Shown piece after piece: positions 59,284 to 63,454 of a stretch of 64,000 nt of DNA. A program made the translations under genes and the position numbers. The stretch's first letter is position 1. The number at the start of each line of letters is the position of its first letter. The notes under the pieces were generated by a model. The model was not told where the DNA came from. It worked only from the letters and a program-made list of their open reading frames with translations, and did no database searches. The DNA comes from a virus, in IMG/VR virus record IMGVR_UViG_3300025874_000005, positions 64,001 to 128,000 of that record, one strand, 5' to 3'.

Positions 59284-60924
59284 ATGAGTCAATTAAATTC
59301 TCTTTTAGAAAGCGCTAATCCTTACAAGTCACTACAAAGTGATGCTGCAAGATTAGCCAACAAATGGAACAAGACAGGCTTGTTAGAAGGTATCGGAAAC
59401 GAAACTGAGAAAAACAATATGTCTATGATCCTTGAAAACCAAGCTAAGCAATTAGTGATGGAAGAAAGTAACACCGGTGGTCCACTTCCTGGAGCAGGTA
59501 CATTCACTCCTGGAACAGGAGCACAATGGGCAGGTGTAGCTTTACCACTAGTAAGAAAGGTATTTGGTCAAATCGCAGCGAAAGAATTCGTTTCGGTTCA
59601 ACCAATGAATTTACCTTCTGGTCTAGTATTTTATCTAGATTTCCAATACGGAACTGCAGGTAAACAACCTTTTGCACAAGGCGGATCACTTTACGGTGAT
59701 ACTGACGGTAACTTACCATTTGGTAATGGTGCTACAGGTGGTCTTTATGGTGCTGGTAGATTTGGTTATTCAATTAACAATACTCAATCTGCTGCTTATG
59801 CAGTAGCTTCTGGTTCTGTTGATTGGTATAGTGATTTGAATGCTGATTCTTCAGTATCTCAGTCTTATGTTGCAGGTGCTTCAGGTCAAATTGTAAAATT
59901 AACTGTCCCTTCTGCTTCATTACCTAACTTTGATGAAAGAGCAGTAAGAGGTTTTTACCTTTCAGGTTCAGCTGCTGATTTACCAGCTTCTGCTACTCAA
60001 TACCCACAATTTACTAAAATCAATGGTGCAAACATTGAATTCTTTGTAGGTTCTGATGTTGTTGAAGCAGGTGCATTAAAAGTTGAGTATTTACTACAAA
60101 CAAATGACGCTCAAAGAGGTGATTTTGAAGATGGTAATAACAACTTAAATGCTGACAACACTCCAATTTCAATTCCAGAAATCAATATTCAAATGCAGTC
60201 GGAAGCAATTGTTGCTAAGACTCGTAAATTGAAAGCTGTTTGGACTCCTGAGTTTGCTCAAGATCTTAACGCTTACCACTCTTTGGATGCTGAAGCTGAA
60301 TTAACTTCAATTATGAGTGAGTATATCTCATTAGAAATTGATTTAGAAATTCTTGATATGTTGATCGAATCTGCTGCTGCTGGTACTGAGTACTGGAGTG
60401 CACAGAATAACTTAGCATTAGCTTCAACAGGTGTTGTAGATTCAGATTTAGGTTTCTACAACTCACAAGGACAATGGTTCCAAACTTTAGGAACTAAAGT
60501 TCAGAAATTGAGTAATATCATTCACCAGAAAACTCTAAGAGGTGGAGCTAATTTTATGGTATGTTCTCCAACAGTAGCTACAATTATCGAATCCATTCCA
60601 GGATTTGCTAGTACTTCTGATGGTGATGCTGCTAAAATGAGCTACGCATTTGGTGTACAAAAAGCAGGTACTATCAATTCAAGATACACAGTTTATAAGA
60701 ATCCATACATGACTGAAAATACCATTTTAATGGGCTTTAGAGGTGGACAATTCTTAGAAGCAGGTGCTGTATTTGCTCCATATATTCCGTTAATCATGAC
60801 TCCATTAGTATACGATCCAAATACCTTTACTCCAAGAAAAGGTCTATTAACTCGTTACGCTAAGAAAGTCGTAAGACCAGAATTTTATGGTAAGATCTTC
60901 GTAGAAGGTTTAAACACTCTATAA
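59284..60924 (+). CDS. major capsid protein (gp23-like)
   Basis: VSVQPMNLPSGLVF, AKTRKLKAVWTPEFAQDLNAYH, FAPYIPL, FTPRKGLLTRYA. Confidence 0.97.
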   Translation: MSQLNSLLESANPYKSLQSDAARLANKWNKTGLLEGIGNETEKNNMSMILENQAKQLVMEESNTGGPLPGAGTFTPGTGAQWAGVALPLVRKVFGQIAAKEFVSVQPMNLPSGLVFYLDFQYGTAGKQPFAQGGSLYGDTDGNLPFGNGATGGLYGAGRFGYSINNTQSAAYAVASGSVDWYSDLNADSSVSQSYVAGASGQIVKLTVPSASLPNFDERAVRGFYLSGSAADLPASATQYPQFTKINGANIEFFVGSDVVEAGALKVEYLLQTNDAQRGDFEDGNNNLNADNTPISIPEINIQMQSEAIVAKTRKLKAVWTPEFAQDLNAYHSLDAEAELTSIMSEYISLEIDLEILDMLIESAAAGTEYWSAQNNLALASTGVVDSDLGFYNSQGQWFQTLGTKVQKLSNIIHQKTLRGGANFMVCSPTVATIIESIPGFASTSDGDAAKMSYAFGVQKAGTINSRYTVYKNPYMTENTILMGFRGGQFLEAGAVFAPYIPLIMTPLVYDPNTFTPRKGLLTRYAKKVVRPEFYGKIFVEGLNTL

Positions 60925-60945: not shown

Positions 60946-60976
60946 AAGAGCCCCGCGTCAGCGGGGCTTTTTTTTT
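60946..60976 (+). terminator. rho-independent terminator
   Basis: AAGAGCCCCGC-GTCA-GCGGGGCTTT + T-run after the MCP gene. Confidence 0.9.
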
Positions 60977-61045
60977 GTTACTAGTGTGTACCTAGTAGGT
61001 AGTTAGTATATTTATACTCGAATATTAATTAAAATAGTTTTTAAA

Positions 61046-61960
61046 ATGAAAGAAACCCCTTCACAGTTACCGATTCAAAGTTATGTAATGAATTTCCCAC
61101 ATACTTTCTCAACAAATGACCCTAATAACGTTTGGATGAAAGAAATGTCCGATAAAGAGTTAGCTATAAATAGACCTAAAGCATACAAACAATTTATGGA
61201 TTTGTATAATTTTATGGCTGGTCAATCATTAGTACATTTGTTACCTGCAGAAGGTAATTTTCAAGATTTAATATACGTTGCTAATTTAGGGTTACAATTA
61301 CCCCACATTAAAGATGAAAACCATATTTTATTATCAAATTATACTTCACCTCCAAGACAGGGTGAAGAATATGTTGGTGAAAAATTCTTTAATCAAATGG
61401 GTTATAAAACCCACATTTCTCCCCATAAATGGGAAGGGGAAGCAGATATAAAATATCTAAAAGATAATGTTTATATTGGGGGGTATGATATAAGATCAGA
61501 TATTAAAACCTACCACTGGATGGAAGAAAATTTTGATATGAAAGTAATCAAAGTTAAAATGGTTGATGAATATATGTATCACTTAGACTGCAGTATCTTC
61601 CCGTTAAATACGCGATCAACTATGGTTTGCACTGAGTTATATGATAAAACAGAGTTAGCGCAAATAAGCAAATATACAAATATAATAGATATAAATGCTG
61701 ATGATTCTACTTATGGAATGGCCAATTCTGTTAGATTAGGAAACATGATATTATGTGCCTCAAACATTTCAGAATTAAAAAAATCAGATGAATTTTATGA
61801 GGGTGAAAAACACAAAATTGAATCATTAGAAAAAATATGTTCTGACGAGGGGATGGAACCTGTTATATTTAATTTATCTGAATATATGAAATCTGGAGCT
61901 ATGTTAAGTTGTATGGTAATGCATTTAAATAGAGTTGATCACTTTAAATCACTTCTTTAA
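61046..61960 (+). CDS. amidinotransferase/guanidino-modifying (pentein) enzyme, arginine dihydrolase/DDAH-like
   Basis: NVWM, DLIYVAN, RQGE, WEGEAD, YHLDC, EYMKSGAMLSC (catalytic Asp/His/Cys). Confidence 0.85.
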   Translation: MKETPSQLPIQSYVMNFPHTFSTNDPNNVWMKEMSDKELAINRPKAYKQFMDLYNFMAGQSLVHLLPAEGNFQDLIYVANLGLQLPHIKDENHILLSNYTSPPRQGEEYVGEKFFNQMGYKTHISPHKWEGEADIKYLKDNVYIGGYDIRSDIKTYHWMEENFDMKVIKVKMVDEYMYHLDCSIFPLNTRSTMVCTELYDKTELAQISKYTNIIDINADDSTYGMANSVRLGNMILCASNISELKKSDEFYEGEKHKIESLEKICSDEGMEPVIFNLSEYMKSGAMLSCMVMHLNRVDHFKSLL

Positions 61961-62727
61961 TGGCTGAAAAACTAGAAGACTGGTTAAATGGAGAAGTTGC
62001 AGAATTATCTAAAAAGTCTGTAGGAGAGTTAAGTAATAATTTTTTCTTTAGAGATCCATTAAGGCCAACACATATAGATTATAAGCATTTTTATAGCCCA
62101 GCAGATGGAACTATTTTATATCAAAAAGTAGTACAACCTGGTGATCAAGTTTTAGAAATAAAAGGTGTTGATTACACACTTCAAGATGTAATGGGAGATC
62201 GTGATTATAATCACCCTTCTTTAGTTATTGGAATATTTATGTCATTTTATGATGTACATATTAATAGAATTCCATACGGGGGTGTACTTAAATATAAACG
62301 TTTGGAGCCTATTGAATCTACTAATCAACCTATGTTAGCTGTAGAGAAGGATATATTAAATAAAGTAATTAATCCTAACAACATGGCATATTTAAAATAC
62401 AATGAAAGAATGTCTAACCAAGTGTATGTTCCCTCTTTGGATTATACATACCATTTAATACAAATTGCCGATGAAGATGTAAATGTAATAGCCCCTTTTA
62501 AACAACAAAATGATCTTTGTGTCCAAAACGAAAGATTCAGTTTAATTAGATGGGGTTCCCAAGTAGATTTAGTTCTACCTCTAGATTCTAGATATGAGTT
62601 TGAGACTGTATTAGATAATACAATGCATGTAAATGCTGGTCTTGATAAATTAATTAAAATAAACCACACTCAAAAATGCCTTCAAAACCCCACACAGACG
62701 AAGTACACAGAAAACAAAGAACTGTGA
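61960..62727 (+). CDS. phosphatidylserine-decarboxylase-fold pyruvoyl decarboxylase (no TM anchor)
   Basis: FFRDP.R, SPADG, IFMS.YDVHINR.P, NER, IRWGSQVD (GS self-cleavage motif). Confidence 0.8.
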   Translation: MAEKLEDWLNGEVAELSKKSVGELSNNFFFRDPLRPTHIDYKHFYSPADGTILYQKVVQPGDQVLEIKGVDYTLQDVMGDRDYNHPSLVIGIFMSFYDVHINRIPYGGVLKYKRLEPIESTNQPMLAVEKDILNKVINPNNMAYLKYNERMSNQVYVPSLDYTYHLIQIADEDVNVIAPFKQQNDLCVQNERFSLIRWGSQVDLVLPLDSRYEFETVLDNTMHVNAGLDKLIKINHTQKCLQNPTQTKYTENKEL

Positions 62728-63410
62728 AGAACCCAATAAAATTCAAAATAAGTTTAAACGAGGAACAAAAAGAAGCCAAACAAAAAATATTAGATAACAC
62801 ATTAACCCTATTAGCCGGAAGAGCAGGATCTGGAAAAACACTCCTAGCATGTCAAGTTGCTTTAGATGGTCTTATACGAAGACACTATTCAAAAATAATC
62901 ATTACTAGACCTACAGTTTCAAAAGAAGAAATAGGATTTTTACCTGGGGATTTAAGAGAAAAAATGGATCCTTGGATTCAACCTATTTACCAAAATATGT
63001 ATGCCTTATATGATAAGGTAAAAGTAGAAAAATTAATTGAGGATGGCAAAGTAGAAATAGTTCCTTTAGCATTTATGAGAGGAAGAACCTTTTTAGACTC
63101 TTGTATTATTGTAGATGAAGCTCAGAATGTTACTCATGAACAAATGGAAATGATTTCAACCCGAATAGGATTAAGATCAAAAATGATTATTTGTGGTGAT
63201 GACCACCAAGTTGATTTGAAATCAAAACGAGAATCTGGTTTTAGATTTTTATACTCAGCAGCTCGTAAAGTAAAAAATATGTGTTCTATTACTTTAATGC
63301 AAAATCATAGAGACCCAATTGTGGATAACTTGATTGAAATTTATGAAGAAGCTGAAAGTAGGGGGATTATTAAAGGATCCTCCGGCACTAGCGGAAAAGC
63401 TAGGCGATAG
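62676..63410 (+). CDS. phoH: PhoH-family ATPase
   Basis: GRAGSGKT, ITRP, GFLPG, MRGRTF, DEAQN, GD..QVD, HRDP. Confidence 0.95.
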   Translation: MPSKPHTDEVHRKQRTVKNPIKFKISLNEEQKEAKQKILDNTLTLLAGRAGSGKTLLACQVALDGLIRRHYSKIIITRPTVSKEEIGFLPGDLREKMDPWIQPIYQNMYALYDKVKVEKLIEDGKVEIVPLAFMRGRTFLDSCIIVDEAQNVTHEQMEMISTRIGLRSKMIICGDDHQVDLKSKRESGFRFLYSAARKVKNMCSITLMQNHRDPIVDNLIEIYEEAESRGIIKGSSGTSGKARR

Positions 63411-63422
63411 TCCTAAAAATTT

Positions 63423-63454
63423 AAAAGGGGCTTAGCAATTAAGCCTCTTTTTTT
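63423..63454 (+). terminator. rho-independent terminator
   Basis: AAAAGGGGCTTA-GCAAT-TAAGCCTCTTTTTTT. Confidence 0.8.

Follow-up and report, generated by a model that had tools for sequence, protein, structure and literature searches.

A pentein and an anchorless phosphatidylserine decarboxylase-family enzyme, co-inherited across unrelated phages, form a candidate arginine-to-putrescine cassette

Amino-acid decarboxylases built on the fold of phosphatidylserine decarboxylase (PSD), arginine dihydrolases of the ArgZ type and phage-encoded polyamine enzymes are all already known. The PSD-fold examples are two soluble fungal pyruvoyl enzymes, PsiD, which acts on L-tryptophan (PDB 8X4Q, 8ZIA), and Aspergillus oryzae Ao-ADC1, which acts on L-arginine (9JER, 9JF5) (PMC12904898, PMC11929908), and phages are known to carry pyruvoyl ornithine and arginine decarboxylases derived from AdoMetDC/SpeD (PMC10407285; PMC9992855). 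The dihydrolases are represented by ArgZ (Synechocystis Sll1336) and AgrE (Anabaena Alr4995), with structures 6JUY-6JV1 and 6LRF-6LRH. Here we describe two adjoining genes on the plus strand of a 64,000-nucleotide stretch of viral DNA (positions 64,001 to 128,000 of IMG/VR record IMGVR_UViG_3300025874_000005, hereafter the window): gene 1 (61046..61960, 304 aa), a single-domain pentein and candidate arginine dihydrolase of the ArgZ/AgrE kind, and gene 2 (61960..62727, 255 aa), a candidate pyruvoyl decarboxylase of the PSD family that lacks a membrane anchor. Together they may constitute a self-contained, horizontally mobile phage cassette that would convert L-arginine to ornithine and then to putrescine in two soluble steps, a reading that we hold to be evenly poised between right and wrong. 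Like the SpeD-derived decarboxylases, gene 2 is phage-borne, would be a self-processing pyruvoyl enzyme and would feed polyamine synthesis, whereas those enzymes have an unrelated fold and are not paired with an arginine dihydrolase. In the literature on PSD, ornithine decarboxylase, putrescine, arginine dihydrolase and phage we found no paper describing the cassette, a PSD-fold ornithine decarboxylase or the spread of the pair among phages, and PMC9992855 makes no mention of PSD, dihydrolase, or Campylobacter or Bacteroides phages. An initial annotation of the locus, made from its sequence, had proposed a polyamine route and stated that no PSD-fold amino-acid decarboxylase was known; the latter statement is outdated, since the structures of both PsiD and Ao-ADC1 have been solved.

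The pentein motifs that had been noted in gene 1 are all present (NVWM at residue 28, VAN at 78, RQGEE at 104, EGEAD at 130, YHLD at 178 and LSCM at 287). The protein has no match in Pfam, and its top NCBIfam matches, Arg_dihydro (86 bits) and mycobacterial DDAH (84 bits), both fall far under their cut-offs; for the arginine dihydrolase models NF052232 and NF052231 the scores were 86 versus a threshold of 450 bits and 81 versus 1025 bits. Among solved structures it is closest to the arginine dihydrolase domains of AgrE and ArgZ, which a family profile built from 15 diverse members recovered with an E-value of 1e-34 (6LRF/6JV0, 123 bits), with DDAH at 2e-8 (37 bits) and the amidinotransferase SxtG at 0.08, so that the proposed fit to the ArgZ/AgrE-type domain holds by sequence and by profile. 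In the printed alignment, AgrE residues N22, D65, N71, R90 and E118 correspond to phage N28, D74, N80, R104 and E130, residues D122, R139, H168 and D170 correspond to D134, R150, H179 and D181, and C264 corresponds to C289, this cysteine having been placed by the C-terminal motif; across the family, all ten positions show little or no variation. The codons of the presumed catalytic residues Cys289 and His179 lie at 61910-61912 and 61580-61582 (+), respectively. Gene 1 thus shares the pentein fold family of ArgZ and AgrE and keeps the ten motif residues, including the Asn of the ‘AN’ motif, at ~30% identity, but it is a single 304-aa domain, whereas the cyanobacterial proteins are ~700 aa long and carry a C-terminal ornithine-cyclodeaminase-type domain, and it has a segment ~15 residues longer before the catalytic Cys. 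Unlike ArgZ and AgrE, it is phage-borne and paired with a decarboxylase.

We take R90 and R139 of ArgZ/AgrE (phage Arg104 and Arg150) to hold the α-carboxylate of the substrate and N71 of AgrE to be important for the second hydrolysis, and DDAH presumably has ‘ED’ where ArgZ/AgrE has the ‘AN’ motif Asn. If these roles are right, the fact that both arginines are retained points to a substrate whose α-carboxylate is free, that is, to arginine and not agmatine, and we consider gene 1 a pentein closest to the ArgZ/AgrE domain with a predicted arginine-to-ornithine activity. Public annotations call homologues of gene 1 ‘amidinotransferase’ or ‘DDAH’, and the latter identity was rejected: model NF045659 gave 84 bits against a cut-off of 300, and the PDB DDAH reached 37 bits where AgrE reached 123.

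Gene 2 belongs to the PSD family PF02666 (84.4 bits, cut-off 22, with 186 of 198 profile positions covered), and it falls below the cut-offs of all 15 NCBIfam PSD models, the best equivalog score (PRK05305/TIGR00164) being 73.5 bits against a cut-off of 183. Its motifs include SPADG at residue 46, YDVH at 97, IADEDV at 169 and WGSQ at 198. In E. coli PSD the maturation set has been defined by mutagenesis as D90/D142-H144-S254 (PMC7952604), and these residues align with D49, D98, H100 and S200 of gene 2, which its family conserves; the GS is at least 90% conserved across the family, the D/D-H/G-S set is intact, and self-cleavage is predicted between Gly199 and Ser200 (codons 62554..62559, +; aligned to E. 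coli G253-S254), with Ser200 giving rise to the pyruvoyl group. The phosphate-contacting Tyr137 of the E. coli enzyme is replaced by an invariant Phe93 in the gene 2 family. No hydrophobic segment or membrane anchor was found by hydropathy or by alignment, in which the transmembrane segment of the relatives is replaced; the best 19-residue Kyte-Doolittle mean is 0.95, compared with 2.3-2.7 in anchored relatives. Motifs and hydropathy therefore bear out the earlier description of a protein that keeps the self-cleavage machinery (SPADG, DVH, GS) and lacks the N-terminal membrane helix.

An AlphaFold2 model of gene 2, which reached a pLDDT of 32 from the single sequence and 88 with 84 homologues, was compared with solved structures by Foldseek and VIA-align; its last ~20 residues are variable in the family and of low model confidence. 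E. coli PSD (6L06, 7CNW) was the best decarboxylase match (Z 12.7 over 176 residues, 18% identity), with the maturation set aligned and the model aligning from E. coli residue 40 onward; the first two amphipathic membrane helices of that enzyme are missing, and gene 2 has Arg in place of E. coli H147, Phe in place of Y137 and IAD in place of VGA. PsiD (Z 10.4, Foldseek E 1.5e-4) and Ao-ADC1 (Z 9.9, E 8.8e-4) followed over VIA alignments of ~176 residues, and EIIA-Glc domains, which have the same barrel-sandwich fold, likewise score against the model. Although the folds of PsiD and Ao-ADC1 match, they share 12-14% identity with gene 2 and are not of the same clade: PsiD is visible to the gene 2 profile at an E-value of 0.008 only, Ao-ADC1 is invisible by sequence, and both are 350-480 aa long and possess a large additional helical region at the N terminus. 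The phage family, in contrast, is derived separately from short bacterial PSDs, and its proposed substrate is ornithine. We regard gene 2 as an anchorless PSD-family pyruvoyl enzyme with a putative soluble substrate.

The short bacterial PSDs in question (PF02666, PRK05305-type; L123, L129 and L146 among them) were found by a profile search of 401 Desulfobacterota genomes and are 33-35% identical to gene 2. They have the same self-cleaving pyruvoyl design and share FFR-P, SPADG, FM-x-x-DVH-NR-P, NER and GSQVDL with it, but they start with a transmembrane helix, which in gene 2 is replaced by a short soluble helix. Where the anchored enzymes read QIAG..V.GI or QVAGVLARRI, the phage family reads QIAD-x-DV. 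The initial annotation had given ‘AG..ARRI’ as typical of short PSDs, which L146 (QVAGVLARRI) shows to be real, and had pointed to a basic-to-acidic swap from IAG..ARRI to IADEDVNVI; the swap exists, but it is not confined to that motif and is instead systematic and family-wide. In a column-by-column comparison of 83 anchorless members with 14 anchored short PSDs, position 129 is Glu in 94% of the former and His in 86% of the latter, position 131 is mixed (basic in 8%) against Arg (86%), position 171 is Asp (96%) against Gly (93%), and position 173 is acidic in 88% against 0%. Similarly, position 189 is Gln (93%) where the anchored proteins are basic (86%), position 223 is His (80%) against basic (93%), position 225 is acidic (71%) against basic (79%), and position 229 is Asp (92%) against Thr (93%); the His, Arg, Lys or Thr of anchored PSDs at 129, 131, 189, 223, 225 and 229 has thus given way to Glu, Gln, His, Glu or Asp in the gene 2 family. 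The mean net charge is reversed accordingly, from +7.6 in the anchored to -5.2 in the anchorless proteins. By sequence, the phage family is a soluble derivative of the short PSDs in which conserved positions have turned acidic, as one expects for a cationic substrate.

A survey of co-occurrence had been suggested with the original proposal, and it revealed strong linkage of the two genes across several unrelated phage lineages. Each gene is represented in public data by ~1,250 clusters at 90% identity, many of them from marine samples. In all 80 related IMG/VR loci with sequence there, the pair is adjacent and the order capsid-pentein-PSD-PhoH is kept, even where the capsid protein is down to 56% identity, and the TAATG junction is retained in all of the commonest junction variants of these loci. 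Both genes are under purifying selection (dN/dS 0.03-0.16 for gene 1 and 0.05-0.14 for gene 2). Among the collected phage records, both are confined to the same two groups, ~40 Campylobacter phages of Fletchervirus and 6 Bacteroides DAC/SJC phages, and they are adjacent in Bacteroides phage DAC19. Four of the 197 open reading frames (ORFs) of the source phage have homologues in both Fletchervirus NCTC12673 and DAC19, namely the RNR large subunit, ThyX and the pair itself, whose matches are by far the strongest (E 1e-41 to 1e-62); the pair is the only non-housekeeping module common to the source phage, Fletchervirus and the Bacteroides DAC phages. Furthermore, distant PSD-like representatives (such as L085, L088-90 and L086), and also a Desulfobacula contig, have a pentein next door in either order; L086 is an HK97-type phage whose pair is flanked by portal/MuF and prohead protease genes.

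Homologues in these searches showed several further features. In one PSD-like homologue (P0124) a LAGLIDADG intein separates the Asp of the D-x-H motif from its His, and another intein lies just before the YH-D motif of the L086 pentein (L086:5113-7140); inteins are usually located in essential catalytic motifs. Two long PSD-like proteins, one of 390 aa with a C-terminal Acb1 (anti-CBASS) domain (P0125) and one of 1114 aa with VapB-like and ADP-ribosyltransferase domains (P0126), are either true fusions or products of gene-calling read-through. In the P0199 lineage (L082-L084), G-S has become A-N, SPADG has become SPTDG and NER has become NQK; its gene is solitary, on the opposite strand in the phage replication region with no pentein nearby, and its product is probably no longer a pyruvoyl enzyme.

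Based on these features, we propose the following route. The pentein would hydrolyse the guanidino group of arginine with Cys289 and His179 and, as in ArgZ, would take arginine through citrulline to ornithine, releasing CO2 and two NH3. The gene 2 protein would cut itself between Gly199 and Ser200, using Asp49 and Asp98-His100, after which the pyruvoyl group derived from Ser200 would form a Schiff base with ornithine and decarboxylate it to putrescine, while the family-specific Glu129, Asp171, Asp173 and Asp229 would hold the distal ammonium of the substrate. We favour this order of steps because it is the simplest way to employ the two enzymes one after the other. Campylobacter and Bacteroidota generally form putrescine from agmatine and not from ornithine, and Bacteroidota generally synthesize arginine through succinylated intermediates, without free ornithine. 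In hosts without an ornithine route, a phage ornithine decarboxylase would need its own source of ornithine, which would explain why the two genes are paired.

The source, a marine phage, has a genome of 164,118 bp with 32% G+C and almost all genes on the same strand, and its closest cultured relative at the DNA level is Flavobacterium phage vB_FspM_immuto, the capsid genes being 75% identical. A 15.6-kb contig binned to the Flavobacteriales metagenome-assembled genome NAT55 (L116, NZWA01000018.1) has the same head-gene synteny at 84-92% protein identity, and its binning is a hint to the host or else an artefact. Directly upstream of the pair lies the Gp23-type major capsid protein gene (59284-60924; PF07068, 3.9e-75), followed by a strong intrinsic terminator (60946..60971, +; an 11-bp stem with 7 GC pairs and then a T run). 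A late-type promoter motif, GTATATTTATAC (61006..61017, +), with its core TATTTATA at 61009, lies 37 nt before the ATG of gene 1. Genes 1 and 2 are joined by a TAATG stop/start overlap (61957..61962, +), the final A of the gene 1 TAA stop (61958-61960) serving as the first base of the gene 2 ATG. The third gene of the unit encodes a phoH-like ATPase (62676..63410, +; PF02562, 2.4e-63), after which a strong intrinsic terminator closes the unit (63423..63451, +). We consider pentein, PSD-like gene and phoH one terminator-bounded unit, because strong terminators lie at 60946-60971 and, next, at 63423-63451. The arrangement described initially, two TAATG-coupled genes right after the capsid terminator and behind a late motif, was thus recovered in full. 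The phoH ORF as listed (from 62676) overlaps the last 52 nt of gene 2 (62676-62727); in most relatives the PhoH match begins ~14-17 residues later and gene 2 stops 8-20 residues earlier, so that the listed PhoH start or the tail of gene 2 may be over-extended.

The core TATTTATA occurs in 41 copies genome-wide, compared with 22 expected from composition, and ~25 of the 41 precede an ORF start by 15-45 nt, most of these in the half of the genome that holds the structural genes, a distribution that fits a putative late promoter. The predicted late timing of expression derives from the ATATTTATA motif. On the proposed route, the pair would be co-transcribed with phoH from this promoter and would supply polyamine during DNA replication and packaging. 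The purpose originally suggested, neutralization of DNA during packaging, does not generalize, since the late, capsid-adjacent position that the genes have here and in L086 is not universal and the Fletchervirus and DAC genes stand outside the head module.

A number of points weigh against the arginine-ornithine-putrescine reading. In Fletchervirus NCTC12673 the two genes are ~43 kb apart in different modules, with the pentein between primase-helicase and sliding clamp genes, and in DAC19 the pair sits among ligase, helicase and dUTPase genes of the replication region; because these genes lie among replication and nucleotide-metabolism genes, a late packaging role is not a general one. No other polyamine genes were found in the source genome among those searched (spermidine synthase, AdoMetDC, PLP-dependent ornithine or arginine decarboxylase, and deoxyhypusine or homospermidine synthase). 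Both proteins score far below NCBIfam equivalog cut-offs (86 versus 450 and 73 versus 183 bits), which marks them as separate subfamilies whose chemistry could differ, and gene 1 could be a deiminase that stops at citrulline. The catalytic Cys-His-acid, guanidino-binding and carboxylate-binding roles in gene 1 are presumed from those in ArgZ/AgrE; the acidic residues of gene 2 are candidates for lining the pocket; and the charge shift could in part be attributable to leaving the membrane alone. Both substrates, the product, self-cleavage, expression timing and physiological use are predictions. Finally, a polysaccharide locus on a contig of a Desulfobacula metagenome-assembled genome contains the pair (50% and 53% identical), the same protein being present on 8 contigs.

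The same cassette might run other chemistry, with an arginine decarboxylase like Ao-ADC1 and a pentein acting on agmatine or N-carbamoylputrescine, or with a pentein that stops at citrulline and a decarboxylase that makes N-carbamoylputrescine for the host amidohydrolase; the end product would still be a diamine. That Ao-ADC1 shows the PSD fold able to decarboxylate arginine, and that the pentein forms a separate subfamily under the Arg_dihydro cut-off, both speak for such a scheme. However, the invariant arginines equivalent to AgrE R90 and R139, in the carboxylate role we assume for them, fit an amino acid and not agmatine, the phage PSD-like family is no nearer to Ao-ADC1 than to lipid PSDs (Z 9.9 versus 12.7; 13-14% identity), and two arginine-using enzymes would compete for arginine, so we regard it as unlikely, though with a small and appreciable probability. 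It is highly improbable that gene 2 is a true PSD boosting phosphatidylethanolamine beside an unrelated arginine-metabolizing auxiliary gene: Pfam and all public annotations do say PSD (homologues of gene 2 are annotated ‘phosphatidylserine decarboxylase’), and the nearest relatives in fold and sequence are lipid PSDs, but the protein has no membrane anchor, the Tyr has become an invariant Phe, basic positions have become acidic, every NCBIfam PSD cut-off is missed, and, across lineages, the gene keeps a strict linkage with the pentein.

The Desulfobacula locus bears on a different use of the product. Its order is epimerase, pyruvyl transferase, GT4, the pair, a CapK-like adenylate-forming ligase (in pieces), a Wzx flippase and two GT2 genes, and there an amine is probably ligated to a sugar acid. 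By extension, the phage pair might make an amine building block to be ligated to a glycan sugar acid of the virion or of the host surface polysaccharide and not a free polyamine; against this, no homologue of the ligase or of other genes of the locus was found in the source phage, Fletchervirus or DAC19, no third partner accompanies the pair as it moves between phages, and its occurrence in bacteria is rare (1 of 401 Desulfobacterota genomes, and no chromosomal pair in ~400 Bacteroidota), leaving the idea with a low probability. A broader version, in which the product is a cationic building block covalently attached to a glycan or other polymer of the virion or infected cell, is prompted by the single bacterial copy adjoining an amide-forming ligase in a polysaccharide locus, and we hold it to be improbable; if true, phages would make their own charged surface decoration from arginine. 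We give a similarly low likelihood to the possibility that the pair acts by depletion or through by-products, draining host arginine or releasing ammonia and CO2, or yields another small amine that serves in signalling or anti-defence. Fusion with, or read-through into, Acb1 or ADP-ribosyltransferase is seen in some homologues, and the position of the pair varies among phage modules, yet neither protein matches PADLOC, an anti-phage-defence library, the fusions are single clusters that may be gene-calling read-through, and depletion alone needs no strictly co-inherited decarboxylase.

The Desulfobacula case is the one confirmed bacterial occurrence of the pair. The phage-type pentein was found in 1 of the 401 Desulfobacterota genomes (the seed Desulfobacula), no chromosomal pair was present among the ~400 Bacteroidota genomes, and a distant pentein (~25% identity) without a PSD-like neighbour occurs in 85 of 401 Bacteroidota genomes. 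One Bacteroidota genome (G782, L184:10149-11048) has a chromosomal pentein 44% identical to gene 1 with no PSD-like gene nearby; it is directly preceded by a 300-aa ORF without a Pfam match, which possibly encodes another kind of partner. The Desulfobacula contig with the polysaccharide locus also has, ~8 kb upstream of the pair, a gene resembling Apyc1 (anti-Pycsar, MBL-fold; L150:1444-2253).

A link to DNA base modification was also considered and rejected. DNA of the Flavobacterium phage immuto carries fdPreQ1 (PMC10516641) and Fletchervirus substitutes dI for dG (PMC13091555), but immuto is without the pair, and Fletchervirus and DAC19 are without QueC. Outside the window, the source phage encodes QueC with a radical-SAM gene nearby (L112:19174-20000; genome 19174-20046) and probably carries a 7-deazaguanine base like immuto; it also encodes a SET-domain protein (L112:16238-16648; genome 16238-16648; PF00856, 1.2e-11). 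In DAC19 the pair has a classical dUTPase gene upstream of it and, two genes downstream, an IMPDH/GMP-reductase-family gene (PF00478, 2.9e-27) adjoining a dCTP-deaminase/dUTPase-like gene (MT074139 157376-158858; L001:11370-12849). The GMP-reductase-like gene is in DAC19 only, being absent from the source phage and Fletchervirus, and this setting may point to an unusual pathway for purine or pyrimidine nucleotides.

If the arginine-ornithine-putrescine reading is true, the cassette would add a further route to putrescine, one that combines an ArgZ-type dihydrolase with a PSD-fold pyruvoyl ornithine decarboxylase, and would provide a separate instance in which a lipid enzyme has been adapted to a soluble cationic substrate, for which the family-wide charge reversal offers a clean, testable signature of specificity. 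Phage genomes and surveys of viral auxiliary metabolic genes contain hundreds of ‘phosphatidylserine decarboxylase’ and ‘DDAH/amidinotransferase’ annotations that would then be corrected as well. The carriers comprise a very abundant group of marine phages together with the Campylobacter Fletchervirus phages, which are used in biocontrol work, and Bacteroides gut phages, the latter two groups being growable in the laboratory.

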